This document shows, piece after piece, positions 3,413-22,346 of a DNA stretch of 22,346 nt. Each line of letters begins with the position of its first letter. The first letter of the stretch is position 1. Source of the stretch: a virus (taxonomy: Duplodnaviria > Heunggongvirae > Uroviricota > Caudoviricetes). The translations under genes and the position numbers were made by a program. The notes beneath the pieces are model-generated. The model searched no databases and was not told where the DNA came from. It saw only the letters and a list, made by a program, of their open reading frames with translations. Where the stretch lies: IMG/VR virus record IMGVR_UViG_3300045988_116769; one strand, given 5' to 3'.

Positions 3413-3478
3413 AACGGGAAGGATGCCGCCGGGTCATACCGGCGGCAATGTGACGATGAGGTGTCGGGGATGGCACAA
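3413..3478 (-). promoter_or_regulatory. S-V intergenic region; probable late promoter for the V operon; contains an 8-bp-stem hairpin at 3425-3446
   Basis: P2 has an Ogr-dependent late promoter upstream of V. The sequence shows inverted repeat GCCGCCGG-gtcata-CCGGCGGC. No exact TGT-N12-ACA activator site found, so the call is positional. Confidence 0.35.
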
Positions 3479-3931
3479 CTAACGGTCGAGGTGCGCCAGA
3501 ATAATCTCTTCAATCATCTGCACATCCTCACCGGTAAAGCCGAGCAGAGGACGCGCCGGATAATCAATTTTCTTACCGTCTTTCCGGGTTTCTTCCGACA
3601 GACCGAACTGATGCACGCTGGCGATTTTCGGTGACTTCCCGCCGTAAAACTCCATTGATGCCTGTTCCGGGCTGGCGCGGATATGCAAAAAACGACTGGT
3701 GATAAGTTTCGCAAACATTTTTCGCTTAACACGACCAGTCTTTTTTCTGGCGCTCTGCTGCTGGCGTGGCGCGTAGGGTGTGCCGTCCGGGGCTTTCTGA
3801 GCCATCACCCGACGCTGCTGACTCTGCCGCAGACGTTTCGCCAGTTCGGCGCTCAGTCGCCGACGCCCTGACGGTGACAGCGATTCAATCAGTCCGGTCA
3901 GCCGGTCTTCAAAACGCTTAAACTCATTCAT
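3479..3931 (-). CDS. S: Tail completion protein S
   Basis: 150-aa ORF, same length and position as P2 gpS; overlaps R by 8 nt. Confidence 0.8.
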   Translation of the reverse strand: MNEFKRFEDRLTGLIESLSPSGRRRLSAELAKRLRQSQQRRVMAQKAPDGTPYAPRQQQSARKKTGRVKRKMFAKLITSRFLHIRASPEQASMEFYGGKSPKIASVHQFGLSEETRKDGKKIDYPARPLLGFTGEDVQMIEEIILAHLDR

Positions 3932-4391
3932 CCCACTTGCTCACCAGTTCGCCATTGATATAAAGCTCCACCGGGCGGGTGACCGGCTCCGGCGGCGTGG
4001 GTTCCGGGATATTCTTCACATGCAGTGCGCCGTCCACCTCACTGACCAGCGTGCGCTCGGTCAGCATCAGGCTGATGCTGATATCAAAGCTGCTGTCATT
4101 GTTGATGTCTGCATAAAACGTGAAGCCCTTTTTCTGGCCTTCGTCAGTGGTCATGATGTCGGGCTGATTTTCCCGCAGCCACGCCAGCACCGGCACGATG
4201 AGCAGGTCAAAATCACCGGTAAAGTCGGTCACAATCACATTGAGCGTGTAACGCTTTTCGAATGACAGCGACGTCGCCAGTGTGGAGGCAATACTCCCGT
4301 TATCCATGAATATCCGCAGCATCTCGGGGCTGGTTTTCAGCACCGTGACGGCATCAGTCAGTGCCCTGCGCAGGCTGTCGGGTTTGAGCAT
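3924..4391 (-). CDS. R: Tail completion protein R
   Basis: 155-aa ORF, same length and position as P2 gpR. Confidence 0.8.
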   Translation of the reverse strand: MLKPDSLRRALTDAVTVLKTSPEMLRIFMDNGSIASTLATSLSFEKRYTLNVIVTDFTGDFDLLIVPVLAWLRENQPDIMTTDEGQKKGFTFYADINNDSSFDISISLMLTERTLVSEVDGALHVKNIPEPTPPEPVTRPVELYINGELVSKWDE

Positions 4392-4644
4392 CGTTTTCGT
4401 CCTGACAGTGTTTAATCATTTTTACCTGGCTGGCACAACGTGCCAGCGCGTTCTCAAGCTGCCGGATATCGGCACTTAAATCGCCGTTCGTCTGCGGGTC
4501 ACTGCCCGGCATCGGGCAAAGACTCACTTTCGGGCAGGAGTTGTGGACAATCACTGGCGTCGGCGCAGGCCGGGCGCTGGTGCAACCGGCGCACAGCATC
4601 AGGCAGATCAGCACCGTACCAGCGGCGAAAATCTTCGTTTTCAT
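4354..4644 (-). CDS. lysC: LysC, Rz1-like outer-membrane lipoprotein (o-spanin), overlapping lysB and R in another frame
   Basis: 96-aa ORF starting MKTKIFAAGTVLICLMLCAGCTSARP: signal peptide plus lipobox-like LCAGC, then a Pro-rich stretch. Overlaps the 3' end of lysB as P2 lysC does. Confidence 0.65.
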   Translation of the reverse strand: MKTKIFAAGTVLICLMLCAGCTSARPAPTPVIVHNSCPKVSLCPMPGSDPQTNGDLSADIRQLENALARCASQVKMIKHCQDENDAQTRQPAQGTD

Positions 4645-4924
4645 TCAGTAACCTCGTGATGGTTTTCTCGCGCTGTGCTTCACGCTTCGCGGCGTTCTCC
4701 AGTTCCTGACGCAGTGCCACCTGCGCCAGCTCGTTTTTGTCTGCCCTGGTGAGGGCAACATGAAGCTGATTTTTCAGCATGGTGATGGTCGTCTGCTGTT
4801 CACTGGCGACGTTGTTCACCCTGTCCAGCGAGGCGCGCAGGCTGGCGTTTTCATGCTTCGCCAGAAACAGCCCCACCACCGCCAGCGATAACAACACAAC
4901 CATCACAATCATCAGCTTTGACAT
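4499..4924 (-). CDS. lysB: LysB, Rz-like inner-membrane spanin
   Basis: 141-aa ORF with N-terminal transmembrane segment (MSKLMIVMVVLLSLAVVGLFLA) and coiled-coil-like remainder; same length as P2 LysB. Confidence 0.7.
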   Translation of the reverse strand: MSKLMIVMVVLLSLAVVGLFLAKHENASLRASLDRVNNVASEQQTTITMLKNQLHVALTRADKNELAQVALRQELENAAKREAQREKTITRLLNENEDFRRWYGADLPDAVRRLHQRPACADASDCPQLLPESESLPDAGQ

Positions 4925-5337
4925 GGTTGCCGCTCCTCAAAACGCTGACGGCAGGCCGTACGTATCAGCCGGAAAAACAGCGATGCCACGAGATAAATCA
5001 GTGCGGTAAAAATCCACCCGGCAGCGACCAGCGAGATAAACGTCGCCACCATCACCACCAGAGCCGCCGCCCGTCTGCGCCACGGCACCGGCTGCAAAAA
5101 CAGCGACGTGACAATCTTCACGGCCAGCGATTCCGGCGGCAGCTCCCGCCCGTAGCGTTCCAGCACATACTCCGTGGCATACACGCCGACACCACCGGCA
5201 ACCACACAGATAACCGTCGCCAGAATCGCCCAGGCAGCGACAAAACTGACGGCCACGCTCTGCGGGTAAATCAGGGACAGTGCCAGCATCAGCGCCAGCG
5301 ACACGTTCAGCATCAGTGAAAGGGATAATTTCTTCAT
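4912..5337 (-). CDS. lysA: LysA, membrane protein of the lysis cassette (lysis timing)
   Basis: 141-aa ORF with several hydrophobic segments; same length and position as P2 LysA, between K and lysB. Confidence 0.65.
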   Translation of the reverse strand: MKKLSLSLMLNVSLALMLALSLIYPQSVAVSFVAAWAILATVICVVAGGVGVYATEYVLERYGRELPPESLAVKIVTSLFLQPVPWRRRAAALVVMVATFISLVAAGWIFTALIYLVASLFFRLIRTACRQRFEERQPCQS

Positions 5338-5351
5338 GGTGTTTACTCCGT

Positions 5352-5849
5352 TTAAGCCGGTACGCCGCCAGCGGTACGCCAGACGGTGACCAGTTTTTCC
5401 AGTGAATGCTCACGCTGACCGTAACCGGCACCCGGCAGGGACGCCCAGATATTGCGACAGCGTGAAATGGCGCGCTCAATGCGTCCCGCCCGGATGTCAT
5501 CCAGTGCACCGCATTCGCGGATCAACTGAATGGCGAGCCTGTCCTGTGACAACGGACTGAAATCCGGCAGGGCAAGCTGTTTGCGGTAATGCGGCCAGAA
5601 CAGGTAAAGCTGCTGATAGCGACCGGAGGCCGTGGATTTTTCACCGCGACGGTTAAACACCTTCGCTGGTCGGCCATGCGCGAACGGGTGGTCGCTGTAG
5701 TCGGTGAAAATTTCCGGCTTCCCGTCCAGTCCGGTGACTATCACGTCATAGCCCCGGTTTTTCGTCAGCGTATGATTCGCCGTCCCTTCGGACACGGCCA
5801 GCATGTCGAGAAAGGCGGCGATATTCTGATGCGTGTTAATTACCGGCAT
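5352..5849 (-). CDS. K: Endolysin K (phage lysozyme)
   Basis: 165-aa ORF starting MPVINTHQNIAAFLDMLAVSEGTANH, close to P2 gpK as I recall it. Confidence 0.9.
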   Translation of the reverse strand: MPVINTHQNIAAFLDMLAVSEGTANHTLTKNRGYDVIVTGLDGKPEIFTDYSDHPFAHGRPAKVFNRRGEKSTASGRYQQLYLFWPHYRKQLALPDFSPLSQDRLAIQLIRECGALDDIRAGRIERAISRCRNIWASLPGAGYGQREHSLEKLVTVWRTAGGVPA

Positions 5850-6130
5850 TACGGTTTCCCCCTGCCCTTAAAACGGCGCTGAATGGCAATCTCAATCACC
5901 TGATAACCGGCGATACCCAGCATGGAGCCGATACCGCACACCGCAGGCAGTGACAGGTCAGGAAACTGCACCAGAACAACACCGGCAACCATCGAGACAA
6001 AACCACCGAGCAACATGCGCCCGATAAACAGACGCGGGGTGATGGGTTCACCACCGGCAAGCACCTTGCCGACAACAATCAGCACCCCAATCATGAAAAG
6101 CGACAGGACGCTTTTTTCTTCTGCTGTCAT
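5849..6130 (-). CDS. Y: Holin Y
   Basis: 93-aa ORF with hydrophobic transmembrane segments and a charged C-terminal tail (RRFKGRGKP); same length as P2 gpY; start overlaps the K stop. Confidence 0.8.
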   Translation of the reverse strand: MTAEEKSVLSLFMIGVLIVVGKVLAGGEPITPRLFIGRMLLGGFVSMVAGVVLVQFPDLSLPAVCGIGSMLGIAGYQVIEIAIQRRFKGRGKP

Positions 6131-6133
6131 GCG

Positions 6134-6337
6134 TTACTCCCACAGATTGACAGTTTCAGCTACGGGCGCGGTCTGAACGTCGGGCAGTTCGACGGCGGTG
6201 CCGTGTGGCAGCATCGCGCCCAGTTCAGCCAGTCCCGGATTTGCGGCGAGCACGGTCTCAACCACGCCCTCAGTGCGCCCGTAATACCGGACACAAATGG
6301 CGTCGAGCGTGTCGCCCTGTAGCGCAAAGGTCTTCAT
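6134..6337 (-). CDS. X: Tail protein X (LysM-like domain)
   Basis: Internal start MKTFALQGDTLDAICVRYYG chosen, giving 67 aa as in P2 gpX; its ATG (6337-6335) overlaps the L stop by 1 nt. The track ORF 6134-6406 has a 23-codon upstream extension. Confidence 0.7.
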   Translation of the reverse strand: MKTFALQGDTLDAICVRYYGRTEGVVETVLAANPGLAELGAMLPHGTAVELPDVQTAPVAETVNLWE

Positions 6338-6846
6338 CAGATTTGACTCACGATGCAGCGCGGCTTGTCCTGGATACGCGCCACCGCCCAGCGCATATCC
6401 CGCCACAGCTCATCAATGGTGCTGTCAATGCTGTCGGCCTTCTTGTCGCCTTTCGCACTGGCATCCACGCCGCGGTAACGCTCATAAAGCGACGCGGTCG
6501 CCATCGCACACACGGCGCGCTCGTAGTAAAAAACTTTGATGCTTTCACCGTCGATGTCGTCCGCCGGAACGTCCGCCAGACGCGTAAAACCGGCGGCAAT
6601 TTTCTGTTCGCGGTACTCGTACAGCTCCGCATTCGTCTCCGCCATGCCTGACTTGATGGCCTCACGCAGACGGGCGGGGGCGACGGTCTGCTCAAGGCGC
6701 ATACGTTCCCGGACGCGCTTCGGGTCGATATCGGGAAAAAAGAACGTGTTTTTAATCACCGGCTCGTCGCCTGCCGGTTGCGGGATGACCACCGTACCCT
6801 CACCGGACACGGGAGCCTCCTTTCGCGGAATAATCAGCGTCATCAT
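6337..6846 (-). CDS. L: Head completion / stabilisation protein L
   Basis: Start MMTLIIPRKEAPVSGEG at 6846 gives 169 aa as in P2 gpL; the track ORF (189 aa) has a 20-codon upstream extension. Confidence 0.8.
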   Translation of the reverse strand: MMTLIIPRKEAPVSGEGTVVIPQPAGDEPVIKNTFFFPDIDPKRVRERMRLEQTVAPARLREAIKSGMAETNAELYEYREQKIAAGFTRLADVPADDIDGESIKVFYYERAVCAMATASLYERYRGVDASAKGDKKADSIDSTIDELWRDMRWAVARIQDKPRCIVSQI

Positions 6847-6945
6847 GACTACCTCTGAAAAGTCGGGCGGTGGACGCCGGTACAGCGTCAGGTGATTCAC
6901 CCTCACAGACCGGCGTGCCGCCCTGGCGCGGGGCGCATTCGGTTG

Positions 6946-7689
6946 TTAACTGGCTTTCTTTTTCGGGCGTCCACGTTTTGCCGGTGTCACGCTCCGGGTC
7001 TTACGCGGGGTACGGGTGGCCGCTTTGGGCTGCGGCTCCGGCTTCGGTTTCAGCTCCCGCTCCAGTCGTTCAATCTCTTTTTTGACGCCTGCCTGACAGT
7101 CGAGCTGTGTCGCACGTTGCAGGTGAGCCAGCGCACCGGCGGCATCACCACCGTCACGCAGAAACAGACCGGTGATTTTGTGCAGCTTTGCGCGCACTTC
7201 ATCAGGCATGTCAGCCGTGGCGGTAAGTTCAAGTGTGTCCGTCAGCAGGCGGGGATCCACAGACTCACCGGCAGCGTGAGCGCGCATGGCCGCAAGCGCC
7301 ACCTCCTCGGTGAACATGTACGGCGGGGTGCGGCGGTGTTTACCCGGCATGGTCAGACCGTACTTCAGGGCATAACGGGCAATCTCCAGCGCACCGGCAA
7401 TATCGCCGGTATCCAGACGCCACAGCATGACCGTCATCAGAATGTCATCCTGTGCACCTTTGCCCTGCTCCAGCACGCCGTTCACCCACGGCAACCAGAA
7501 CGGCAGCAGTTCGCGTTTTTTCGCGGCCTTAAGCTCTTTTGAATAAATCGCTTTCAGTGTGCGCTGATCTGCGGCGAGCTTAACCAGCATCTGCTCATAG
7601 ACAGTTGCATGTCGCAGCGGGGCGGCTTCCCGCTGCGCGGTCATCGCTGCCGAGACCCGCATCATGTGGCGCTGTGCGGGACTCGTCAT
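6946..7689 (-). CDS. M: Terminase subunit M (small / endonuclease subunit)
   Basis: 247-aa ORF, same length as P2 gpM; basic Lys/Arg/Pro-rich C-terminal tail; sits between N and L. Confidence 0.85.
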   Translation of the reverse strand: MTSPAQRHMMRVSAAMTAQREAAPLRHATVYEQMLVKLAADQRTLKAIYSKELKAAKKRELLPFWLPWVNGVLEQGKGAQDDILMTVMLWRLDTGDIAGALEIARYALKYGLTMPGKHRRTPPYMFTEEVALAAMRAHAAGESVDPRLLTDTLELTATADMPDEVRAKLHKITGLFLRDGGDAAGALAHLQRATQLDCQAGVKKEIERLERELKPKPEPQPKAATRTPRKTRSVTPAKRGRPKKKAS

Positions 7690-7692
7690 CGG

Positions 7693-8766
7693 TTACGCTC
7701 CCGGCTCTGCGGTCGCCTTAGCCGGTGTGGAGAAATCACCGACCTTAATTTTTTCCACCAGACAACCGGCGGCGTAGTCTTCCACCACGTAATCAATGTT
7801 CATTGACTCGTAGTTCTCCACGCGGTCGAGTTTCGGGTTTTCCACAATCACGCGGCGATGGCTGTCATCCATGTAGTAGATGGACAGGTTTTCCAGCTTC
7901 GTGATGAGCATCGCATCCGCCGGGAAGTACGGGACGCGTACCGCCGGCAGGTTACCGATGCGTTTCTGGCTGATGATGACGTCAGCGGCCAGCATTTCGC
8001 TGTTGTCCTGCTCCTTGTTGACGATGGGGAAATATTTGTCCGCCAGCAGCTGACGCCCCACAATCACCACAAGGTCAGGGTCTTCCTGATACCACGGCTC
8101 AATCAGGTTGTTGGTCGCATCCATCACCAGTGCATCGAGGCTGGCATAATCACCGCCCTTACCCACGCGGATGACCTCAGAGGTGGTGTGCCCTTCCTCG
8201 TCAGTGACCTTGCTCATCACGCGCGCCGGTGCTTCATTGCGGTATTTCTGCAGCCAGCCGACCGCCACATCCTGCAGCATCGGATTGCTGCTGCGGTCAG
8301 AGGTTTCGGCACGCTTCACGCCGTTAAAACCGGCCATGATGAAATCAAGGGACTGGCGTTTGATAATGGCGTTACGGATACGGAGCTGGAAATCCTGATA
8401 ACGCGCCCACAGGTCCAGCGTTTTGTAGCGGATATAAAAATCGAAGTTAATCTGGTCGCATTCGTACTTGTTAGACGCCAGCTTCGAGAAGTCCTTCGGC
8501 TGACGCTCGGTGCCACCGGCGGTGTCGGTGGTGCTGGCGATGGAGCCGGTGACACCGATGCCAATTTTTTCCCCTTTCATTTCGCTGACCGGCACAATGT
8601 TGATGCGGGTCAGAAAGTCAGAGGACTCCTGCATGGTGTTCATCAGGGTCTGGGTGACCGACGGTTCAACGGTGAATTTTTTCGACACATCACCGGCGTC
8701 GATGCCGTTCAGTTCGGCAACACGGGACAGGTAAGCATTAAATTTAAAGCGGGTTTCCTGGCGCAT
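7693..8766 (-). CDS. N: Major capsid protein N
   Basis: 357-aa ORF, same length as P2 gpN; starts MRQETRFKFNAYLSRVAELNG; sits between O and M. Confidence 0.9.
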   Translation of the reverse strand: MRQETRFKFNAYLSRVAELNGIDAGDVSKKFTVEPSVTQTLMNTMQESSDFLTRINIVPVSEMKGEKIGIGVTGSIASTTDTAGGTERQPKDFSKLASNKYECDQINFDFYIRYKTLDLWARYQDFQLRIRNAIIKRQSLDFIMAGFNGVKRAETSDRSSNPMLQDVAVGWLQKYRNEAPARVMSKVTDEEGHTTSEVIRVGKGGDYASLDALVMDATNNLIEPWYQEDPDLVVIVGRQLLADKYFPIVNKEQDNSEMLAADVIISQKRIGNLPAVRVPYFPADAMLITKLENLSIYYMDDSHRRVIVENPKLDRVENYESMNIDYVVEDYAAGCLVEKIKVGDFSTPAKATAEPGA

Positions 8767-8824
8767 AGTTTTTCCTGAAATTAAGGGTTAATCGTGAAGG
8801 TTTTCCCGGACTGACTGACGCCGG

Positions 8825-9679
8825 TCAGCAGTTCGTCAGCAGGGCATCACCGCCACCGCCGGTGGCTTTACTGCGGCGCTGCTGGGTCAGACTTTCGGTG
8901 CTGTCGAGACTGTTTTTCAGGCGGGTGAATGCCTGGCTGGTTTCATCCGCCCTGTCAGTCACATCCTGCTTAAGTGCGGAAAAGGCGGTTTCCATCTCAG
9001 CGAGGCGCTGCTCAGTGGCGCTCAGTTTTTCCTGCACATGTTCAGCAACAGCGGTCACCGCTTCATGCACATCATTCAGACGGGCATCATCGCTGGCCTG
9101 TTTGCGGCCAAAAATGGATTTCACCTTTTCGGTCAGGGCGGTGAACACGGTTTCAGGCAGGTCTTCAAATTCCAGCTCAACAGGCGTTGCCACTGAAATC
9201 AGGTTTTCAGGGCTTAATTTGAAGCGGTTCAGGGGGTTGTGTTTTGCCGTGCGGCAGAATTCCAGGTATTCCGTGCCGAGGCTTGCCGGGTCATCGGTGA
9301 CGGCCAGCCCCACCAGATAACATTTGCCGGTATTGGCAAAGTTCGGCTGAATTTCCATTGAGGTGTAGACCTTCTGCGCGGCCTTGTTCATCGCGATAAG
9401 GTCATCGGTCGGGGTGATTTTCGCAAACAGCGCCCATTTGCCTTTCAGCGCCGAATCGTCGTCAATCTTTTCGGCCTTCAGTTCGGCCACATCGCCATAA
9501 CGCTTAAAAATACCGTCAGGCAGGATGCCACGCAGATGTTCCAGGTTAATGCGGCAACCATAGACTCGCGGGTCAAAGGTTTCGGCCATTTCCTGAATAT
9601 CCTGCGCACTGATGACACGCCCGTCACAGGTGTCACCCTCAACGCCGATACGAAAGAATTTTGAGACTTTTTTTGCCAT
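8825..9679 (-). CDS. O: Capsid scaffolding protein O
   Basis: Internal start MAKKVSKFFRIGVEGDTCDGRV at 9679 gives 284 aa as in P2 gpO; the track ORF has a 22-codon upstream extension. Confidence 0.85.
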   Translation of the reverse strand: MAKKVSKFFRIGVEGDTCDGRVISAQDIQEMAETFDPRVYGCRINLEHLRGILPDGIFKRYGDVAELKAEKIDDDSALKGKWALFAKITPTDDLIAMNKAAQKVYTSMEIQPNFANTGKCYLVGLAVTDDPASLGTEYLEFCRTAKHNPLNRFKLSPENLISVATPVELEFEDLPETVFTALTEKVKSIFGRKQASDDARLNDVHEAVTAVAEHVQEKLSATEQRLAEMETAFSALKQDVTDRADETSQAFTRLKNSLDSTESLTQQRRSKATGGGGDALLTNC

Positions 9680-9852
9680 TGTCAGGAGTCCTGAATAGTG
9701 ATTAGAGGAGTCACATGTCGGCATCAGTTTCCCGACGATGCGCATCCTCCGCCATCAGTCCCGGATGGCTTATCACTGACACAACAGCACCTTAGCGAAT
9801 CGCGGGGCGCGACTCAGTAGCCTTGCCGTGTATTCATCACGGCGAGGTATTC
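9680..9852. promoter_or_regulatory. Divergent late-promoter region between O (minus) and P (plus)
   Basis: In P2 this intergenic region carries the divergent Ogr-activated late promoters. A near-consensus activator dyad TGG-N12-ACA lies at 9766-9783, about 70 nt upstream of the P start. Positional call. Confidence 0.4.
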
Positions 9853-11625
9853 ATGACCATCACCACAGACACCACTCTTTTACACGACCCGCGTCGTCAG
9901 GCGGCGCTGCTGTACTGGCAGGGATTTTCCGTGCCGCAGATTGCCGCCATGTTGCAGATGAAACGCCCGACGGTGCAGAGCTGGAAACAGCGCGACGGCT
10001 GGGACAGCGTTGCCCCCATCAGCCGTGTCGAAATGAGTCTGGAAGCGCGGCTGACCCAGCTCATCATCAAACCGCAGAAAACCGGCGGTGACTTCAAGGA
10101 AATTGACCTGCTCGGACGCCAGATTGAACGACTGGCACGGGTCAACCGTTACAGTGAGACCGGCAACGAGGCAGACCTTAATCCGAACGTCGCTAACCGC
10201 AACAAAGGCGGGCGTCGCAAACCGAAAAAGAATTTTTTCAGTGACGAGGCCATCGAAAAGCTGGAGCAGATTTTCTTTGAGCAGTCTTTCGAATATCAGT
10301 TGCACTGGTATCGCGCCGGGCTTGAGCACCGCATCCGCGATATCCTGAAATCCCGCCAGATTGGCGCGACGTTTTATTTTTCCCGCGAGGCGCTGCTGCG
10401 CGCCCTGAAAACCGGTCATAACCAGATTTTTCTGTCGGCCAGTAAAACGCAGGCGTATGTGTTCCGCGAATACATCATCGCCTTTGCCCGGCTGGTTGAC
10501 GTTGACCTGACCGGTGACCCGATTGTCCTGGGCAATAACGGCGCAAAACTGATTTTTCTCGGCACCAACTCCAACACCGCGCAGAGCCATAACGGCGACC
10601 TGTACGTCGACGAGATTTTCTGGATCCCGAATTTTCAGGTACTGCGTAAGGTGGCATCAGGTATGGCCTCACAGAGTCACCTGCGTTCGACCTATTTCTC
10701 CACCCCGTCCACGCTGGCGCACGACGCCTACCCGTTCTGGTCGGGTGAACTGTTCAACCGGGGACGCGCCAGCGCCGCCGAACGCGTGGAAATCGACGTC
10801 AGTCATAACGCCCTTGCCGGTGGGCTTCTCTGTGCAGACGGCCAGTGGCGGCAGATTGTCACCATTGAGGACGCGCTGAAAGGCGGCTGCACGCTGTTCG
10901 ACATTGAGCAGCTCAAACGCGAAAACAGCGCCGACGATTTTAAAAACCTGTTCATGTGTGAATTTGTTGACGACAAGGCGTCAGTGTTCCCGTTCGAGGA
11001 GCTGCAACGCTGCATGGTCGACACGCTGGAAGAATGGGAAGACTACGCGCCGTTTGCCGCAAATCCGTTCGGCTCCCGCCCGGTATGGATTGGTTACGAC
11101 CCGTCACACCGTGGCGACAGTGCCGGATGCGTGGTACTGGCACCGCCGGTGGTGGCCGGTGGCAAATTCAGAATACTTGAGCGTCACCAGTGGAAAGGCA
11201 TGGACTTTGCCACCCAGGCTGAATCCATCCGCAAACTCACCGAAAAATACAACGTCGAATACATCGGAATTGATGCCACCGGCCTCGGTGTCGGCGTGTT
11301 TCAGCTCGTTCGCTCGTTCTATCCCGCCGCGCGCGATATCCGCTACACGCCGGAAATGAAAACCGCAATGGTGCTCAAGGCAAAAGACGTTATTCGCCGT
11401 GGCTGTCTGGAATATGACGTCAGCGCCACCGACATCACCAGCTCGTTTATGGCTATCCGCAAGACCATGACCAGCAGCGGACGCAGCGCCACCTATGAGG
11501 CCAGCCGCAGCGAGGAAGCCAGCCATGCCGACCTCGCCTGGGCGACCATGCACGCCCTGTTAAATGAGCCACTCACCGCCGGTATCAGCACCCCGCTGAC
11601 ATCCACCATTCTGGAGTTTTACTGA
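9853..11625 (+). CDS. P: Terminase ATPase (large) subunit P
   Basis: Start MTITTDTTLLHDPRRQAALLYWQGF at 9853 with GAGGT Shine-Dalgarno 5 nt upstream gives 590 aa as in P2 gpP; the track ORF starts 10 codons earlier. Confidence 0.9.
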   Translation: MTITTDTTLLHDPRRQAALLYWQGFSVPQIAAMLQMKRPTVQSWKQRDGWDSVAPISRVEMSLEARLTQLIIKPQKTGGDFKEIDLLGRQIERLARVNRYSETGNEADLNPNVANRNKGGRRKPKKNFFSDEAIEKLEQIFFEQSFEYQLHWYRAGLEHRIRDILKSRQIGATFYFSREALLRALKTGHNQIFLSASKTQAYVFREYIIAFARLVDVDLTGDPIVLGNNGAKLIFLGTNSNTAQSHNGDLYVDEIFWIPNFQVLRKVASGMASQSHLRSTYFSTPSTLAHDAYPFWSGELFNRGRASAAERVEIDVSHNALAGGLLCADGQWRQIVTIEDALKGGCTLFDIEQLKRENSADDFKNLFMCEFVDDKASVFPFEELQRCMVDTLEEWEDYAPFAANPFGSRPVWIGYDPSHRGDSAGCVVLAPPVVAGGKFRILERHQWKGMDFATQAESIRKLTEKYNVEYIGIDATGLGVGVFQLVRSFYPAARDIRYTPEMKTAMVLKAKDVIRRGCLEYDVSATDITSSFMAIRKTMTSSGRSATYEASRSEEASHADLAWATMHALLNEPLTAGISTPLTSTILEFY

Positions 11626-12659
11626 TGAGCAAGAAAAAAGGGAAAACACCGCAACCTGCGGCAAAAAAAATGACCCCCAGCGCACCGAAAATGGAGGCAT
11701 TCACCTTTGGTGAGCCGGTGCCGGTACTCGACCGCCGTGACATTCTGGATTACGTCGAGTGCATCAGTAACGGCAGATGGTATGAGCCACCGGTCAGCTT
11801 TACCGGTCTGGCAAAAAGCCTGCGTGCTGCCGTGCATCACAGCTCACCGATTTACGTTAAACGCAATATTCTGGCCTCGACATTTATCCCGCATCCGTGG
11901 CTTTCCCAGCAGGATTTCAGCCGCTTTGTGCTGGATTTTCTGGTTTTCGGTAATGCGTTTCTGGAAAAGCGTTACAGCACCACCGGTAAGGTCATCAGAC
12001 TGGAAACCTCACCGGCAAAATATACCCGCCGTGGCGTGGAGGAGGATGTTTACTGGTGGGTGCCGTCCTTCAACGAGCCGACAGCCTTCACGCCCGGCTC
12101 CGTGTTTCACCTGCTGGAGCCGGATATTAATCAGGAGTTGTACGGCCTGCCGGAATATCTCAGCGCCCTTAATTCTGCCTGGCTGAATGAGTCGGCCACG
12201 CTGTTCCGCCGAAAGTATTACGAAAATGGCGCTCATGCCGGATACATCATGTACGTCACCGATGCCGTGCAGGATCGCAACGATATCGAAATGCTTCGCG
12301 AAAACATGGTTAAGTCGAAAGGCCGCAACAACTTTAAAAATCTGTTTCTCTATGCCCCGCAGGGGAAAGCTGACGGCATTAAAATTATCCCGCTCAGTGA
12401 AGTGGCAACGAAGGACGATTTTTTTAATATCAAAAAAGCCAGCGCCGCTGACCTGCTGGACGCGCACCGCATCCCCTTTCAGTTGATGGGCGGCAAGCCG
12501 GAGAACGTCGGGTCACTGGGAGATATTGAGAAAGTGGCAAAGGTCTTTGTCCGCAATGAGCTTATCCCGCTACAGGACAGGATCCGCGAGATAAACGGCT
12601 GGCTCGGTCAGGAGGTCATCCGCTTTAAAAACTACTCACTGGACACTGACAACGGCTGA
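11625..12659 (+). CDS. Q: Portal (capsid vertex) protein Q
   Basis: 344-aa ORF, same length as P2 gpQ; start overlaps the P stop (ATGA); ends 168 nt before cos as in P2. Confidence 0.9.
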   Translation: MSKKKGKTPQPAAKKMTPSAPKMEAFTFGEPVPVLDRRDILDYVECISNGRWYEPPVSFTGLAKSLRAAVHHSSPIYVKRNILASTFIPHPWLSQQDFSRFVLDFLVFGNAFLEKRYSTTGKVIRLETSPAKYTRRGVEEDVYWWVPSFNEPTAFTPGSVFHLLEPDINQELYGLPEYLSALNSAWLNESATLFRRKYYENGAHAGYIMYVTDAVQDRNDIEMLRENMVKSKGRNNFKNLFLYAPQGKADGIKIIPLSEVATKDDFFNIKKASAADLLDAHRIPFQLMGGKPENVGSLGDIEKVAKVFVRNELIPLQDRIREINGWLGQEVIRFKNYSLDTDNG

Positions 12660-12664
12660 ACATC

Positions 12665-12686
12665 GCCGCCTGCGGGCGGCTTTTTT
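12665..12686 (+). terminator. Rho-independent terminator of the P-Q operon
   Basis: GCCGCC-tgcg-GGCGGC hairpin followed by TTTTTT, 5 nt after the Q stop codon. Confidence 0.75.
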
Positions 12687-12826
12687 ACATCCCGTCATCA
12701 CGCCCTCACACACTCACCACCGCACAAAACAGCCCGCAGGCAAACCAACGCCCAACGGACAGACTAAGCGCCGTCACGACGCGCTGAGACGCTGAAAAAA
12801 TAAAATCAGCACCACCGCCAGCGCGC

Positions 12827-12845
12827 AGTGCTTTCCCCGCCTCGC
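12827..12845. other. cos site (19-nt cohesive end of P2/186)
   Basis: GTGCTTTCCCCGCCTCGCC is the reverse complement of the cohesive end GGCGAGGCGGGGAAAGCAC as I recall it. Adjacent bases (reverse complement of about 12720-12845) also match my recollection of the P2 left-end sequence. Confidence 0.8.
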
Positions 12846-13121
12846 CCGCCCGCTTCATGGGGCGGTTTTAATGCAGTTGCATGAGTACGTTGAATCCTCG
12901 CTAGCTGTGACGTAAAGCAATGAGGACGCATAACTTTGACACATGCAAAACCATGCACCTGATACATGCATAGTTATTACTTTGTAAAAACATAAAAAAA
13001 GGAAATCCCATGAACAAAAATCAAACTATTAATAAAAATTTTTATATCTCTTAGAACAAAAGATTTTGCTTGAACAAAGTAAACTTCTGAGGTAGATCTT
13101 TATCGTTTAGCAAAATAATTC

Positions 13122-13175
13122 ATGTTAAACAGCTTAAATATTTATACAATATCATTGGCAATGATGAGGTTTTAA
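13122..13175 (+). promoter_or_regulatory. Putative promoter/operator and RBS of the cargo gene
   Basis: -10-like TACAAT at 13145-13150; 15-bp palindrome ATCATTG-G-CAATGAT at 13151-13165; GAGGT Shine-Dalgarno at 13166-13170, 5 nt before the ATG. AT-rich context, -35 not clear. Confidence 0.35.
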
Positions 13176-15395
13176 ATGGAACTTAAATTAAAGAATATAA
13201 CCAGCTATAAGAAAGATAGCTTCACGACTCTTAATCTCTCAAAAAAAATTAATATACTTTATGGTCACAACGGTTGTGGAAAATCAACCATATCTAATTA
13301 TTTCTATAATCCAAATAACACGGACTACAAAGAATGCGAATGTCCTTTCATAGATACTTTTCGCCTATTGGTTTATAATACTAAGTTTGTTGAGGATAAT
13401 TTTTATAATGCAAAAGAGCAAAAAGGAGTATTCACTTTAAGTAAGGAAAATGCTGACATTGAAAAAGAATTGTTGGAAAAAGAAGCTATAAGACAAGACC
13501 TACTTACAAAATACAAAGATAAAAAAAACGTTATTGAGCGTTTAATTAAAGATAAAAACAATAAAGAAAATGAATATATTGATTTAATATGGAATAAAGC
13601 AGAACCTTTTAGATCATCTGACTTAAAGAACTTGATGAAAGGTCAGTTAGGAAGCAAGAGATCATTTTATGAGCAAGTTAAAAAAGCCCCTCAAACCACT
13701 GACGTTAACATCGAGTCACTTGCTCAAGAATATAGTATTCTTTTAAAGAACAAAGATAAATTCACTGCATCAATTACACCTTTAGAAAAATATATCATTT
13801 CAGAAAAAGATAAAGAATCTTTATCCACTCCGATTATAGACTCAAGTAATAGCTATTTGTCAGAAACAATTAAACAACTTCAAAACCTTGACTGGGTGAA
13901 AAAAGGGAAGGAATTATATTTAAATGGCACATGTTGCCCATTCTGCCAAGAAGACACTATTAAAGACAAATTTTTAGAAGCAATTGAATCTATCTTTGAT
14001 GATAGCTACTCCAAGAAAGTTGACCAAATACGCATTATCAGATCGTCTTATGAATCCGCTACCATAGATAATTTAAGAAAAATAAAACAAGAGATTTCAT
14101 CTTGTGAATTAATCACCTCAAAAGAAAAAGATATAACATCATCTCATATAGCGTTATTAGAGGAAATAGCAAACAAAAACTTAAAATTGATGTTAGATAA
14201 AATCAATAACCCATCTATATCTATTATTTTGGAATCCAATAGCGACCTTGAAGCAAAGGTAGTTGATAATATAGCAGAGTACAACAATAGAATTAAAGAA
14301 ATAAATATTAAAGTCAAACAATTTAAGGATAGTGAAAAGTCTATACGTTACAAAATATGGGGAGCAATAAGAGAATTATGCAACGCTGAGTTTGAAGCTT
14401 TCTCAAAATATGAGAATGACTATAAAATCATTTATGAACAATATCAACTTGAATTAAATACCATAAAAGAACAAGGAGATAACAATAGCAAAAAGATCAA
14501 AGAGCTACGCGATCAAATATCTAACATTGATGCAACCATAGATTCTATAAATCAACGTCTAAAATTATTAGGAATTTATGGTTTTAGCATAAAAAAACAC
14601 ACTGAGAGCAATGATAAATATATTATATCACGTTCTGAAAACACAACAGATAAAGATGTATACAGATCTCTTAGCGAGGGTGAAAAAACTTTAATTACCT
14701 TTCTCTACTTTCTGGAATGCTGTAAAGGTAAGACAGATAAGAATGATACGGATATGCGAGATGTATTTATCGTTATTGATGATCCAATATCCAGCCTCTC
14801 TCAAAATTATGTGTACGATATTGCTTCAATAATTCACCATGAAATAATCAACAATAACAAAGCAGTAAAGAAAACATTAATACTCACACATAACCTTTAT
14901 TTCTTTCATGAACTTATCAAATTAGCTCCTAGAAGCAAAGAAGATAGAACATTCAAGCGTGATTATTATCTTGGACGAGTAACAAAAAATGAATATAGCA
15001 TAATTACAGAAATAGAGAAAAAGAGCATTCAGAATGAATACCAGTCCCTATGGCAAGTATTAAAAGATGCGAAGGATGGAAGGGTAAATAAAGTCATAAT
15101 ACCTAACATCATGAGAAATATACTGGAATACTACTTCGCATTTGTTCATAGAACGGATGCATTACAGACAGAGTTAAATAAACTTGCTAGCGATGATAAG
15201 AATAATGATTTTAGAGCATTTTATAGATACATTAATAGAGGTTCCCATTCAGATGCAGTTAATATCACAGACATGGGAGATATATCTCCAGAGAAATATA
15301 TGGAGCAACTAAAAACCATTTTTCGTATGACTGGTGATGAAAAACATTATTTGAAAATGATGGACGAAGAGGAAGAGGAAACCGTTACCGCTTAG
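13176..15395 (+). CDS. Cargo gene: 739-aa ABC/SMC-like ATPase of the AAA_13 type with a coiled-coil insert carrying CxxC and a C-terminal domain; candidate RloC/PrrC-like anti-phage protein
   Basis: Walker A GHNGCGKST (13263-13289); C253-C254-P-F-C257 (13932-13946) in a Lys/Glu-rich coiled-coil-like stretch; signature LSEGEK (14670-14687); Walker B VFIVIDD with D-loop PISSLS (14763-14801); H-loop LILTHN; C-terminal R647-x3-E651 and His 658/691. About 30% GC against roughly 55% in flanking phage genes. Convergent with gene A. Confidence 0.75.
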   Translation: MELKLKNITSYKKDSFTTLNLSKKINILYGHNGCGKSTISNYFYNPNNTDYKECECPFIDTFRLLVYNTKFVEDNFYNAKEQKGVFTLSKENADIEKELLEKEAIRQDLLTKYKDKKNVIERLIKDKNNKENEYIDLIWNKAEPFRSSDLKNLMKGQLGSKRSFYEQVKKAPQTTDVNIESLAQEYSILLKNKDKFTASITPLEKYIISEKDKESLSTPIIDSSNSYLSETIKQLQNLDWVKKGKELYLNGTCCPFCQEDTIKDKFLEAIESIFDDSYSKKVDQIRIIRSSYESATIDNLRKIKQEISSCELITSKEKDITSSHIALLEEIANKNLKLMLDKINNPSISIILESNSDLEAKVVDNIAEYNNRIKEINIKVKQFKDSEKSIRYKIWGAIRELCNAEFEAFSKYENDYKIIYEQYQLELNTIKEQGDNNSKKIKELRDQISNIDATIDSINQRLKLLGIYGFSIKKHTESNDKYIISRSENTTDKDVYRSLSEGEKTLITFLYFLECCKGKTDKNDTDMRDVFIVIDDPISSLSQNYVYDIASIIHHEIINNNKAVKKTLILTHNLYFFHELIKLAPRSKEDRTFKRDYYLGRVTKNEYSIITEIEKKSIQNEYQSLWQVLKDAKDGRVNKVIIPNIMRNILEYYFAFVHRTDALQTELNKLASDDKNNDFRAFYRYINRGSHSDAVNITDMGDISPEKYMEQLKTIFRMTGDEKHYLKMMDEEEEETVTA

Positions 15396-15642
15396 GCCGC
15401 ATATCATCGGGTTGGGTAAGAACGACGGTGTTCACACACCGTCTCCCACTTACCGAAACGATAGCGATTGTACTGACGTACTTTCACTAACTTTAACATG
15501 AGATTATCTCCATGCCAGCACTATTGTTGCCAATAGCAGCCTTTACACCCTTTGTATAAAGCTAATACCAAGAGCAATGCAAGGATACCCCAAGCGGTAA
15601 CTGGCGTGGATTCTAGAGCAGCCTAACTAAAAAATCAAAGCA

Positions 15643-17952
15643 TTAATTAAATCCCGGCCACTCATCATTTACCGGATACCTGAAGTTTACCCCCTCATAA
15701 TTTACGGTTGCCCCACGCGCCAGCGCCTCAAGCTCCCATCGCTGAGGCCTGATACCGTTCTGACCAAGGTCAACGCGGATACGGGGGATTTGCATTCGTT
15801 CCGACCGGGTCAGTCTGGCCGAAGGCGCAATTTCATGCGGTTTTAACGGGCTTCCGTTTCTTTGCTGACGATTTGGTGTTCTCAGTTCGTGTTTTAATGC
15901 CCCCCTGAGCGCCCTCACGACATCCGGGTCATTCCATTCGATAACACCGTCATCGACCAGATTAAGCACGGCTGCGGCATGTTCAGAAGGTGTGGGAGCC
16001 GTTAACGAAGTATCACTGCCGGTGAACTTTCCACAGTTATTGACAGGACTCCGAGGCGCGGCGATGCCGCTTTTTAAAGTCAAAGGCTCAACGACCGGAA
16101 CTTTCGGCACAATGCGCCAGTCCGTCGTTCTGGTGATATGAATATGACGCGCGCCGAGATGCGGCGCGTAAATGCCGACCACTCTCCCGACTTCTTCCTC
16201 GTACTCGTTAACGTCATCCGACGGGCTACGGGCGACTCTGACAGTCTGGCAATCACGCGGAACATTTGCCCCACCCTGCGCGCTGATATACAACGCAAAA
16301 TCACCACTGTCTGCGGCGGCACGTGCAGCCTCAACGCGTTCGTCAAACTCATCAGCAATGCTGACGCCGCGAGGCAATTTGCGTAGTTCACGGTAAGCCC
16401 CCATTGTCGGCAGGCCAACCGTTTTAAATTGCGGGATGCGCCACGTTGACGCCCATGCGGTAACAGCCGCAGCAGTATCTTTCAGCGGCCTGCCGGTATC
16501 GTTATCGAGCTGACCATCCAGTGCATAGCCATCGATGTTTTTTGAGATGTATTTCGCGATATACCCCGCAGCACCGCCCCGGTTAAGATGTTTTGCCTGA
16601 AAACGGTTTCGCGCGGCTCCTCTTTCGTCGCCATCCTCTTTGAGCGCATAGCGACGCATGATTTCGATAATCTGGTTACGCTGGCGTGGATTACAAAAAA
16701 GCATCATATGCCAGTGCGGCGTTCCGTCGTGGTGTGGCTCGACGACTCGCAAACCGTAGACCTGTAAATCATTATCCTTGAATGCCGTGCGCATCAGGCT
16801 CCAGATACGGCAGAGATAACGCTGCGCATCCTTTGGATTAAATGCCTCATCGTTCCAGCCGTGATTAAGCTGAACGGTTTTACTTTCGCCTTTTCTGACC
16901 TGACGAGTCGGGTGATACTTTGACGGCGCGGTCAGCGTGATAAACATCCCCACATCACCCTCTGCGGCGGCGTAACGCTCAATACCGGCAATGGTGTTCA
17001 TCAGCTCCATCCGGCGAATTTCAGGATTAGAAATACTGCCCATCACCTTACTGATAAGGTCGATGCGCTCGCCGGTTTCCCTGTTTTCAAGGTCACACGA
17101 TTTAAGAAATTCCAGATTTGCCTGGCGGCGCGCACGCACATCACGAATGGCGTGTTTACTGGCATAAGGAGAACGGTCTTTATTGACCTCCCCGACAGCT
17201 ATCAGTAACGCTTCATGCCAGCGCATACGCTGGCCTTTAAGCTGATGAGTCCACCACTCATCGTTAAACAGACGGGCAATGGCAGAATATGCCTGCCTCG
17301 TGGTCATCTGCCCTTTACGGTATTTTTTCCAGTAGAGAGGGGAAATATTGAAAGCACGTGCAGCGCCAGCAACATGACCATAGAGGTGAGCCTGCGCCTC
17401 ATCCGTAAACAGCGATTCTTTTTCGCCATGCGCATCCACCCAGGCATCGCTGAGTTCCTCATACATCATGAAAAGCTGCGATGAGATACGGGCAGCAAAC
17501 TTTTTCAGCTCCTTGTCATTCATTCCCGGCAGGCGCGCATAGTGGTCACGCTCTGCCAGAAACAGTAACGACGCGTCGGTGTTCATTTCATGGCGCTGAT
17601 TCACACGCTCAATGCGCGGCCATAAACGACGCTGAAAAGTGGATGTGAGGAAATAAAACCCGTGTACCGGGCTTTTATTGCGCCGGATGTAGTCATAGCG
17701 TGAAGTAAACAGCGAGCGCAAAAAGTAAGGCAGGCGGTTAATCGTGGATAAAACACCTTGCACCTGACGCATCTCGTCACGTGTAAGGGGTCTTTCGCGC
17801 CCGACGGCCTCGCGTGGCGCGTTCCATGCATAAGCACCGGTAAACGCCTTACCGGTGCCTGCAGCAAATGCTGAAGGAGGGACAAAACGCCCGGAGGCTT
17901 TAACGGCCATATGAGCCAAAAGCCTCTGAACAACGCCTGCTGAGTTGCTCAA
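15643..17952 (-). CDS. A: Replication initiation protein A (rolling-circle nickase)
   Basis: 769-aa ORF containing MAVKASGRFVPPSAFAAGTGKAFTGAYAWNAPREAVGRERPLTRDEMRQ, matching P2 gpA as I recall it. True start may be the internal Met at 17910 (755 aa). Confidence 0.9.
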   Translation of the reverse strand: MSNSAGVVQRLLAHMAVKASGRFVPPSAFAAGTGKAFTGAYAWNAPREAVGRERPLTRDEMRQVQGVLSTINRLPYFLRSLFTSRYDYIRRNKSPVHGFYFLTSTFQRRLWPRIERVNQRHEMNTDASLLFLAERDHYARLPGMNDKELKKFAARISSQLFMMYEELSDAWVDAHGEKESLFTDEAQAHLYGHVAGAARAFNISPLYWKKYRKGQMTTRQAYSAIARLFNDEWWTHQLKGQRMRWHEALLIAVGEVNKDRSPYASKHAIRDVRARRQANLEFLKSCDLENRETGERIDLISKVMGSISNPEIRRMELMNTIAGIERYAAAEGDVGMFITLTAPSKYHPTRQVRKGESKTVQLNHGWNDEAFNPKDAQRYLCRIWSLMRTAFKDNDLQVYGLRVVEPHHDGTPHWHMMLFCNPRQRNQIIEIMRRYALKEDGDERGAARNRFQAKHLNRGGAAGYIAKYISKNIDGYALDGQLDNDTGRPLKDTAAAVTAWASTWRIPQFKTVGLPTMGAYRELRKLPRGVSIADEFDERVEAARAAADSGDFALYISAQGGANVPRDCQTVRVARSPSDDVNEYEEEVGRVVGIYAPHLGARHIHITRTTDWRIVPKVPVVEPLTLKSGIAAPRSPVNNCGKFTGSDTSLTAPTPSEHAAAVLNLVDDGVIEWNDPDVVRALRGALKHELRTPNRQQRNGSPLKPHEIAPSARLTRSERMQIPRIRVDLGQNGIRPQRWELEALARGATVNYEGVNFRYPVNDEWPGFN

Positions 17953-19486: not shown

Positions 19487-19677
19487 TTCCAGACCCTCCG
19501 GCTTTTCAGAAAGGTCAGAGCCTTTTTTAACGGACTCTGTTTTTTGGTGCGGATAATGATTCCCTTACGCCCCTTACCGTGGGTGATGGTGAAGTCAATC
19601 GCCCTGGGGCTTTCGTTACGCAATAACTGAGCAATACAACGAGGCTCATTCATACGGTTCTCCTTAACGTGGTTCAC
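19483..19677 (-). CDS. Hypothetical early protein (P2 orf78 position)
   Basis: 64-aa basic ORF between cox and B, overlapping both ends. Confidence 0.5.
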   Translation of the reverse strand: MNHVKENRMNEPRCIAQLLRNESPRAIDFTITHGKGRKGIIIRTKKQSPLKKALTFLKSRRVWK

Positions 19678-19939
19678 CGAGACCTAACCACATCAACCAG
19701 CCGTCACGAATCTCTTTAGGACGGCTTTCATAAGCCAGTTTTAGTCCGTTATTCCATGCCGGAAGGTATACCCAATATTCACCAGCACGCCCCGATACTG
19801 ACTGAGGGTCAGTAATCTCAATAACTGGTAATTTCCCTTTCTCAATCATGCCCCTTACAGCTCTTGGAGTTTTACCAATGAGTTTTGCAAACTCCTGATA
19901 AGGCACGGCATCAGTCACGCTTACAAGCTGTCTATTCAT
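19664..19939 (-). CDS. cox: Cox (early-operon repressor / excisionase-like directionality factor)
   Basis: 91-aa ORF, same length as P2 Cox; first gene of the minus-strand early operon, divergent from C. Confidence 0.8.
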   Translation of the reverse strand: MNRQLVSVTDAVPYQEFAKLIGKTPRAVRGMIEKGKLPVIEITDPQSVSGRAGEYWVYLPAWNNGLKLAYESRPKEIRDGWLMWLGLGEPR

Positions 19940-20060
19940 CTGCTACGATTCTCCCTTAGTGCTTCTAATGGCTCCTAATGGCTAATTATTGCCTAAAAGG
20001 ATAACTCCAGAAGCGCAACATCTCACACTATCAGCAAGAAATTACGCAATCGGAGTAATT
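19940..20060. promoter_or_regulatory. Immunity switch region: divergent early (toward cox) and repressor (toward C) promoters with candidate operator repeats
   Basis: Intergenic between divergent cox and C. Tandem direct repeat GCTTCTAATG / GCTCCTAATG / GCTAATTA at 19961-19988. Confidence 0.5.
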
Positions 20061-20360
20061 ATGTCAATAGACGTTTCGGAGAAGTTGAAGCTAATCCGTG
20101 AATCTGAAAGGTTAAACCGTAAAGAATTCAGTGAATTAACTGGTGTAGCCTACAGCTCACTTTCGAGCTATGAGAGCCGGTCAAAAAACGCTGGAGTTGA
20201 AGCCATAATGAAGGTCTTACAACATCCCAGATTTACTAAATATACTTTGTGGTTCATGACTGATCAGGTAGCTCCAGAAGCCGGGCAAATTGCGCCCGCT
20301 CTCGCACACTTTGGGCAAAACGAAACAACGTCGCCCCACTCCGGTCAAAAGACTGGTTAA
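20061..20360 (+). CDS. C: Immunity repressor C
   Basis: Start MSIDVSEKLKLIRESERLNRKEFSELTGVAYSSLSSYESR at 20061 gives 99 aa as in P2 C (HTH). C-terminus ...QIAPALAHFGQNETTSPHSGQKTG matches P2 C from memory. The track ORF starts 24 codons upstream. Confidence 0.85.
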   Translation: MSIDVSEKLKLIRESERLNRKEFSELTGVAYSSLSSYESRSKNAGVEAIMKVLQHPRFTKYTLWFMTDQVAPEAGQIAPALAHFGQNETTSPHSGQKTG

Positions 20361-21568: not shown

Positions 21569-21595
21569 AATCTCCCTTACACGGGCTTATTTTTT
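21569..21595. other. att core (27 bp) at the int-proximal prophage/host junction
   Basis: AATCTCCCTTACACGGGCTTATTTTTT is the reverse complement of the P2 att core AAAAAATAAGCCCGTGTAAGGGAGATT as I recall it; lies 80 nt after the int stop. Confidence 0.75.
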
Positions 21596-22296: not shown

Positions 22297-22346
22297 CTGT
22301 CTCTTATACACATCTGACGCTGCCGACGAAGAGGATAGTGTAGATC
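22297..22346. other. Illumina Nextera adapter (Tn5 mosaic end, adapter, 8-nt index, flow-cell primer start); not biological
   Basis: CTGTCTCTTATACACATCT (mosaic end, reverse complement), GACGCTGCCGACGA, AGAGGATA (reverse complement of TATCCTCT, which I recall as index N503/S503), then GTGTAGATC. Confidence 0.9.

Follow-up and report, generated by a model that had tools for sequence, protein, structure and literature searches.

The locus examined here raises the question of whether a short sequence lying between a phage portal gene and a cargo gene is a genuine cos site, and whether the prophage around it could still give rise to phage particles. The window, by which we mean the whole 22,346-nt stretch of viral DNA that was analysed, had been described from its letters as carrying an intact P2-type cos next to the Q terminator, in a prophage thought to be functional, inducible or at least packageable and not a cryptic remnant. 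Judged from its sequence, the element is the genuine cos of a P2-like (Peduovirus) prophage. This prophage is best explained as sequence-intact, with a cos that very probably works as it does in P2, by homology.

A search of the window with the 19-nt P2 cohesive end, GGCGAGGCGGGGAAAGCAC, returned a single copy on the minus strand at 12828-12846. The preliminary description had recognized this sequence correctly, the match being exact, but had placed it one base off, at 12827-12845. Allowing up to three mismatches added no further match, and 100 shuffles of the window gave an expectation of 0.01. The P2 record AF063097.1 annotates the same sequence at both genome ends, as cosL (1-19) and cosR (33575-33593), each equal to GGCGAGGCGGGGAAAGCAC. 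Alignment to P2 and 186, which had been proposed as a check, bore out the assignment, with 19/19 positions identical to P2 and differences from 186 at 2/19. Moreover, the consensus of P2-type (Peduoviridae) cohesive ends, GGCG(A/T)GGCGGGGAAAGCA(C/T), is present on the minus strand at 12828-12846. The flanks also resemble P2, as had been noted: of 60 nt next to cos towards Q, 57 are shared with P2, and towards the cargo 29 of the first 30 nt are shared before similarity stops. When the window was compared by blastn with circularized P2, positions 3477-12875 formed a single alignment spanning cos, with 97.5% identity, and P2 DNA homology past the cargo resumed at 15650, close to the end of gene A. 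The Q terminator is indeed a near neighbor, with tQ at 12665-12680 followed by a T run, ~140 nt from cos. The site thus follows the portal gene Q and its terminator tQ and precedes the right-end accessory region, and the cognate terminase, gpM plus gpP, is encoded in cis.

The conserved extent of the site was defined by comparison across IMG/VR, which was scanned for GGCGWGGCGGGGAAAGCAY. At least 120 loci were recovered, and among the matches listed 110 unique P2- or P4-like loci had 200 nt on each side. When these 110 loci from the matches listed were anchored at cos, column conservation delimited a core of 62 nt, extending from -36 to +25 relative to the first cos base in P2 orientation (Table 1). 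The window agrees with 50/50 columns conserved at ≥90% among the 110 unique cos loci in the matches listed; over the whole core it is identical to Yersinia phage HQ103 at 62/62 positions, to P2 and to P4 at 57/62 each, and to 186 at 56/62. The core probably corresponds to the conserved "55-bp" cos common to P2 and P4, as given, with reference to Ziermann & Calendar 1990, in PMC9594776 and PMC2231350. HQ103 (MZ420230.2) is an isolated Peduovirus with a virion-derived genome, whose record opens with the 19-mer and closes at the base preceding it; the joined HQ103 termini are identical to 106 nt of the window. Phage D8 (OM475426) had also been considered as a close viable comparator and was dropped in favor of HQ103 because its record is partial and without cos. 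By every sequence criterion applied (the 19-mer, the conserved core, the termini of a viable phage and the cognate terminase genes), cos is intact.

A terminator-like hairpin, CCGCCC...GGGCGG followed by TTTT, abuts cos on the right-end side and forms part of the core. In the alignment it is conserved in P2 and P4 and has variant bases in 186. One base of the hairpin loop is A in the window and G in P2, A being the majority state among the 110 unique loci in the matches listed. The idea that the closing pair of the hairpin (G-C in P2, A-T in 186) must be kept was found unsupported, because an A-C mismatch takes its place in the window, in HQ103 and in the majority consensus alike.

The packaging genes themselves are in place. 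M, P, Q, O and N had been reported as intact reading frames; all are full length and gap-free relative to P2 by tblastn, and Pfam confirms their families. The module had been expected to look complete, and with L included its genes (Q, P, O, N, M, L) prove to be full length, at 98-99.7% identity to P2. The P protein matches Terminase_5, Terminase_6N and Terminase_6C in Pfam, and the RefSeq product name of M is "terminase endonuclease subunit". The word "packageable" is therefore accurate for the genes and for cos, both of which are intact, but needs a restriction, since the prophage cos is single and internal. The preferred substrate for packaging is covalently closed circular DNA, as stated for P4, a user of the P2 machinery (PMC2231350), and for these reasons the site would be usable only after excision and replication.

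Table 1 Coordinates of the cos region, packaging genes, cis sites and prophage boundaries (window numbering unless L003, the numbering of the Q65 locus, is given)
Feature	Position	Strand	Remarks
L, head completion protein, 169 aa	6337..6846	-	99.4% to P2, 169/169; Pfam Phage_GPL
M, terminase small subunit, 247 aa	6946..7689	-	98.4% to P2, 247/247; Pfam Phage_term_smal
N, major capsid protein, 357 aa	7693..8766	-	99.4% to P2, 357/357; Pfam Phage_cap_P2
O, capsid scaffold/protease, 284 aa	8825..9679	-	98.9% to P2, 284/284; Pfam Phage_GPO
Activator (Ogr) binding site, divergent late promoters pO/pP	9759..9789	-	31/31 to P2 3057-3087
P, terminase large (ATPase) subunit, 590 aa	9853..11625	+	99.7% to P2 gpP, 590/590
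Q, portal protein, 344 aa	11625..12659	+	98.8% to P2 gpQ over residues 1-343 (343/344 aa); Pfam Phage_portal
tQ, rho-independent terminator of the P-Q operon	12665..12686	+	P2 tQ = 160-181
Joined termini of Yersinia phage HQ103 (MZ420230.2)	12787..12892	-	106 nt, 100% identical
Conserved cos core, 62 nt	12821..12882	-	Offsets -36 to +25 from first cos base, P2 orientation
19-nt cohesive end	12828..12846	-	Exact match to P2 cosL/cosR
Predicted terminase nicks, 19 nt apart	minus 12847/12846; plus 12827/12828		Geometry from the cos annotation of the 186 record
Terminator-like hairpin with TTTT	12846..12869	+	Abuts cos on right-end side; part of core
Fourth TGCAT copy	12871-12875		Offset -29 from cos
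Distal TGCAT repeats	12943..12970	-	Offsets -124, -111, -101 from cos; candidate extended packaging signal
Cargo: RloC-like ABC ATPase / anticodon-nuclease candidate, 739 aa, ~30% GC	13176..15395	+	Place and orientation of P2 old
A, rolling-circle replication initiator	15643..17910	-	96.7% to P2 over 755 aa
ori nick region	16032-16071		40/40 identical to P2
P2-type immunity switch	19664..20360		cox 19664-19939 minus; C 20061-20360 plus
int, integrase, 337 aa	20476..21489	+	99.7% to P2 Int
attR core	21569..21595	-	27/27 to P2 attP core; prophage end beside yegR
Q65 prophage	L003 4268-35095		attL core L003 4268-4294; right end = window 21569-21595

Beyond the packaging module, the plus strand of the window is the P2 map reversed. 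It reads H' (cut), I, J, W, V, S, R, lysC/B/A, K, Y, X, L, M, N and O on the minus strand, then P and Q on the plus strand, tQ, cos and the cargo gene; past the cargo follow A, orf83-80, B, orf78 and cox (minus), C and int (plus), and attR. Most P2 proteins inside the window gave full-length, gap-free tblastn matches, and the window's essential genes for head, lysis, baseplate, replication and integration are full length and stand in P2 order. In this comparison X, Y, K, R, S, V, W, J, B and A are 95-100% identical to P2 at the amino acid level and I is 82% identical; H is only ~42-53% identical, in a tail-fiber region that differs from P2 and has an invertible segment. The P2 proteins orf30, orf91, Tin and Old were not found by tblastn against the window. 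At the places of two non-essential P2 genes, orf30 (3413-3476, between S and V) and orf91 (15396-15642, after A), short intergenic spacers are all that is seen.

The window starts within H and stops in adapter; attL and the part from the rest of H through ogr lie outside it, and completeness was judged from other genomes that match the 22.3 kb. Positions 1-22296 match three complete E. coli genomes at 100.0%. One of these, Q65, was inspected; a single one-base difference from the window was seen, in the last 70 nt. In Q65 the prophage is flanked by yegQ and yegR, extends from ogrK to int and bears zero pseudogene flags, and its full-length FI, FII, E, T, U, D and ogr are 98-100% identical to P2. 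Both 27-bp att cores are exact and stand as direct repeats, predicting a circle of 30,801 bp, which is comparable to 186 (30,624 bp) and falls inside the 29-34 kb of isolated relatives. Disruption of essential genes outside the window, named beforehand as the finding that would speak against a functional phage, was not seen in Q65, the one matching genome inspected. The rest of the prophage thus looks intact by proxy of Q65. That it is no cryptic remnant holds in the sense of sequence integrity, for the window genes and for Q65; the genes outside the window were seen in Q65 only. Directly established by comparison are the sequence identity of cos and its flanks, of the packaging genes and of the cis sites, and the intactness of the remaining prophage in one complete matching genome. 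A ~98% identical version of this 22-kb block is also present in several other E. coli genomes of varied sources, which suggests recent mobility. The same att site holds a whole phage in Q65 and only the P2 remnant ogrK in E. coli K-12.

Two observations concern the ends of the contig. The last 50 nt (22297-22346) are Illumina Nextera adapter, CTGTCTCTTATACACATCTGACGCTGCCGACGA and then index/P5; they represent an untrimmed contig end and not genome, and the matching chromosome diverges from the window where the adapter starts. At the opposite end, a gix/cix-like inversion crossover site lies inside H at window 79-105, with its inverted partner at L003 11707-11733. In the matching genome the partner site adjoins a gene for a "recombinase family protein" and alternative tail-fiber-assembly genes. 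Several E. coli genome matches start exactly at window 79, where the other orientation of the invertible segment would be expected to take over. An invertible host-range segment, absent from P2, probably explains the contig start.

The use of cos as a map anchor, with the cargo placed at the P2 right end, proved sound: the low-GC region at ~12971-15642 stands where P2 has orf91-tin-old, and the cargo gene is the only gene between cos and A. Its product matches Pfam AAA_13 (E=2e-102) and, in PADLOC, PDC-S06 (E=4e-253) as well as PrrC (E=2.5e-14) over residues 456-734, the C-terminal ~280. The ATPase motifs comprise Walker A (30-37), LSEGE (499-503), DDP (531-537) and THN (571-573); a zinc hook, CPFC, is found at 254-257, and a triad, R647-x3-E651-x39-H691, has S690 before the His. 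RloC has been defined by the motifs of an ABC ATPase, by a CXXC zinc hook carried in an insert, and by a C-terminal triad, Arg-X3-Glu-X36-52-His, whose His is preceded by Ser (PMC2610378). The cargo protein fits this family definition by its motifs, and an anticodon-nuclease or defence role is a candidate function. By sequence it had nothing meaningful in the PDB and no match to an NCBIfam model. The gene is present at ≥95% identity in ~20 of 5,426 complete E. coli genomes and absent from the isolated phages of the phage collection, where the exact genome was not seen as a virion.

The location of this gene has a precedent. The gpA-gpQ locus adjacent to cos has been described as a hotspot: among 18,150 loci, 1,650 gene arrangements were distinguished (Rousset 2022, PMC9122126). 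The exact cargo protein, WP_021520307, is listed at the gpA-gpQ hotspot in Table S5A of that study, and "AAA_13, RloC-like" is its system #5, with 420 occurrences in Table S5B (Rousset et al. 2022, PMC9122126). In the available text of the same paper, experimental validation of the AAA_13, RloC-like system was not found. The cos, the hotspot and this cargo protein at the hotspot have thus all been published already.

In the window, TGCAT motifs occur at all four canonical offsets from cos (-124, -111, -101 and -29), and the same fixed offsets recur in 65 unique P2-like and 24 unique P4-like loci among the IMG/VR matches listed. In the IMG/VR matches listed, TGCAT density is 3.4-3.8 per 140 nt adjoining cos, compared with 0.17-0.49 in the next 260 nt. 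The repeats on the right-end side are also visible in the alignment of the window with P2, P4 and 186; in HQ103 the distal block was not found at the same ungapped offsets. A cosmid study reported that longer cos flanks raised transduction >1000-fold (PMC9594776). We read the TGCAT block as a candidate packaging signal because the P4 block faces away from P4's own hotspot, and its role is suggested by conservation. The alternative of a cargo promoter was rejected as the main reading of the distal block, since in P4 the block lies opposite the hotspot across cos. Tentatively, the repeats might form a cosB-like binding array for the terminase small subunit, a proposal to which we give somewhat less than even weight; the functional cos would then measure ~150 bp, and the inner boundary of the hotspot would lie at ~12971. 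If so, this boundary would replace the end of P2 homology (12875). Such an extended cos may already be implied by the 1990 work of Ziermann and Calendar.

Other readings of the locus were weighed against these data. That the cos derives from a P4-like satellite, is an isolated cos remnant or arose as a chance match is hardly credible. P4-like satellites do carry the identical 19-mer and core, and no Q stands beside cos in 24 of the 94 classified IMG/VR loci (24 unique versus 65 unique P2-like loci, among the matches listed). In the window, however, Q, P, O, N, M and L lie on one side of cos and A, B, cox, C and int on the other, and because of this full P2 synteny the satellite or remnant reading is already refuted; a chance match is opposed by the expectation of 0.01. 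Induction by the SOS response in the manner of 186 is very improbable as well. The 186 record places the SOS module (p95-tum) in the cos-proximal region between A and cos, the same A-cos region that is occupied by cargo here, and cargo could in principle include such a module, but the sole gene found there is the RloC-like ATPase. No tblastn match to 186 Tum, CI, Apl, CII or Orf97 was obtained in the whole 49-kb locus, and LexA-box searches gave 7 one-mismatch matches versus 6.5 expected, which is chance level, with none between cos and A. The C/Cox switch is as in P2, which is without an SOS-inducible phenotype, while 186 owes its SOS induction to the LexA-controlled tum (PMC7708051). The traits of SOS-inducible 186-like phages (Eganvirus), a LexA-controlled Tum and a CI/Apl/CII switch, were accordingly not found in this locus. 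With a P2-type C/Cox switch, no Tum and no LexA box above chance, the earlier description of the prophage as "inducible" is unsupported, and we expect that it would be non-SOS-inducible, like P2. Two further papers, PMC4856287 and PMC13100340, contained nothing on P2 cos or on induction. Cox and C are 84% and 65% identical to P2 at the amino acid level, and DNA homology is interrupted at 19917-20231; the lower identity of C and Cox points to a heteroimmune P2 relative. This relative keeps the P2 attachment site, with Int 99.7% identical and the att core exact.

It is also conceivable, though improbable, that cos and the reading frames are intact in a prophage that is nonetheless non-viable, having been recently inactivated or domesticated and kept for its cargo or as a helper of P4-like satellites. 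The defect would then be a missense or regulatory change invisible at the level of reading frames, or a lesion in the unseen half of the source strain's prophage. The left half of the source is indeed unseen, as the window stops inside H and ends in adapter; no isolated phage in the collection carries the cargo, and C and Cox have diverged from P2. Against this stand the 95-100% amino acid identity across most essential window genes (with I at 82%, Cox at 84% and H far lower), the lack of any frameshift or stop, and cis sites identical to those of P2. The prophage is moreover complete and unflagged in the matching genome inspected (Q65), and the recent mobility suggested by the ~98% identical 22-kb block in further, varied E. 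coli genomes also speaks for a working phage.

Taking the prophage as sequence-intact and operating as P2 does, we propose the following course of events. After derepression, Cox and Int would excise the prophage at the 27-bp att cores to give a circle of ~30.8 kb, in which gpA would nick ori and initiate replication to circular monomers. Ogr-dependent late promoters would drive O-N-M-L and P-Q. The terminase (gpM and gpP) would recognize the conserved cos core, and probably also the right-end TGCAT repeats, and would nick the strands 19 nt apart, at the positions given in Table 1; from these positions, the virion chromosome would begin at Q and end with the cargo gene. The linear DNA would pass through the gpQ portal into gpN/gpO procapsids. 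The RloC-like defence candidate would thereby come to lie at the right end, right beside cos, in the gpA-gpQ hotspot. Cleavage, excision and particle production are inferred here by homology to P2. Release is expected to be spontaneous or to follow derepression by a P4-type satellite. The latter route is suggested because, in an engineered P2 system, the prophage is switched to lytic replication by the P4 epsilon gene (PMC9942202).

The assignment has several consequences. The cos sets the orientation and the ends of the virion map and shows the RloC-like gene to lie in the known hotspot adjoining cos, and the prophage can be marked as sequence-intact rather than as a remnant. A lysogen of this kind could release phage spontaneously, serve as a helper for P4-like satellites with the same cos and spread its defence gene horizontally. 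The arrangement is correct but ordinary and well described, and holds no new biology.

Among known systems, P2 (AF063097.1 / NC_001895) has the identical 19-nt end at the same place, ~140 nt downstream of tQ/Q, with the same right-end hairpin and the same terminase (gpP 99.7% and gpM 98.4% identical). It differs in two bases just distal to the proximal TGCAT copy, and past 12875 the old promoter, old, tin and orf91 of P2 are replaced in the window by other DNA. HQ103 differs in carrying other cargo genes at its right end. P4 (NC_001609) and 186 (U32222) have in common with the window a core of the form TGCATTAAAACCG...GGCG(A/T)GGCGGGGAAAGCA(C/T)nGCGCGC, together with TGCAT repeats at -124, -111, -101 and -29. 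P4 has the identical 19-mer, is without Q, P and M of its own and borrows the terminase of its helper; unlike in the window, its hotspot lies on the opposite side of cos. The two cohesive-end positions noted above set 186 apart, as does its SOS module tum beside cos. The gpA-gpQ hotspot (Rousset et al. 2022) is the same cos-adjacent locus and shows no difference in kind. The likeness to lambda consists of a cos-type site at which a two-subunit terminase generates 5' cohesive ends. The lambda ends, however, are 12 nt long and of unrelated sequence, and the recognition elements are arranged otherwise. Lambda packages linear multimers, whereas the P2/P4 system prefers covalently closed circles (PMC2231350). 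Compared with lambda, the cos of the window has its conserved elements mostly on the right-end side of the nicks.
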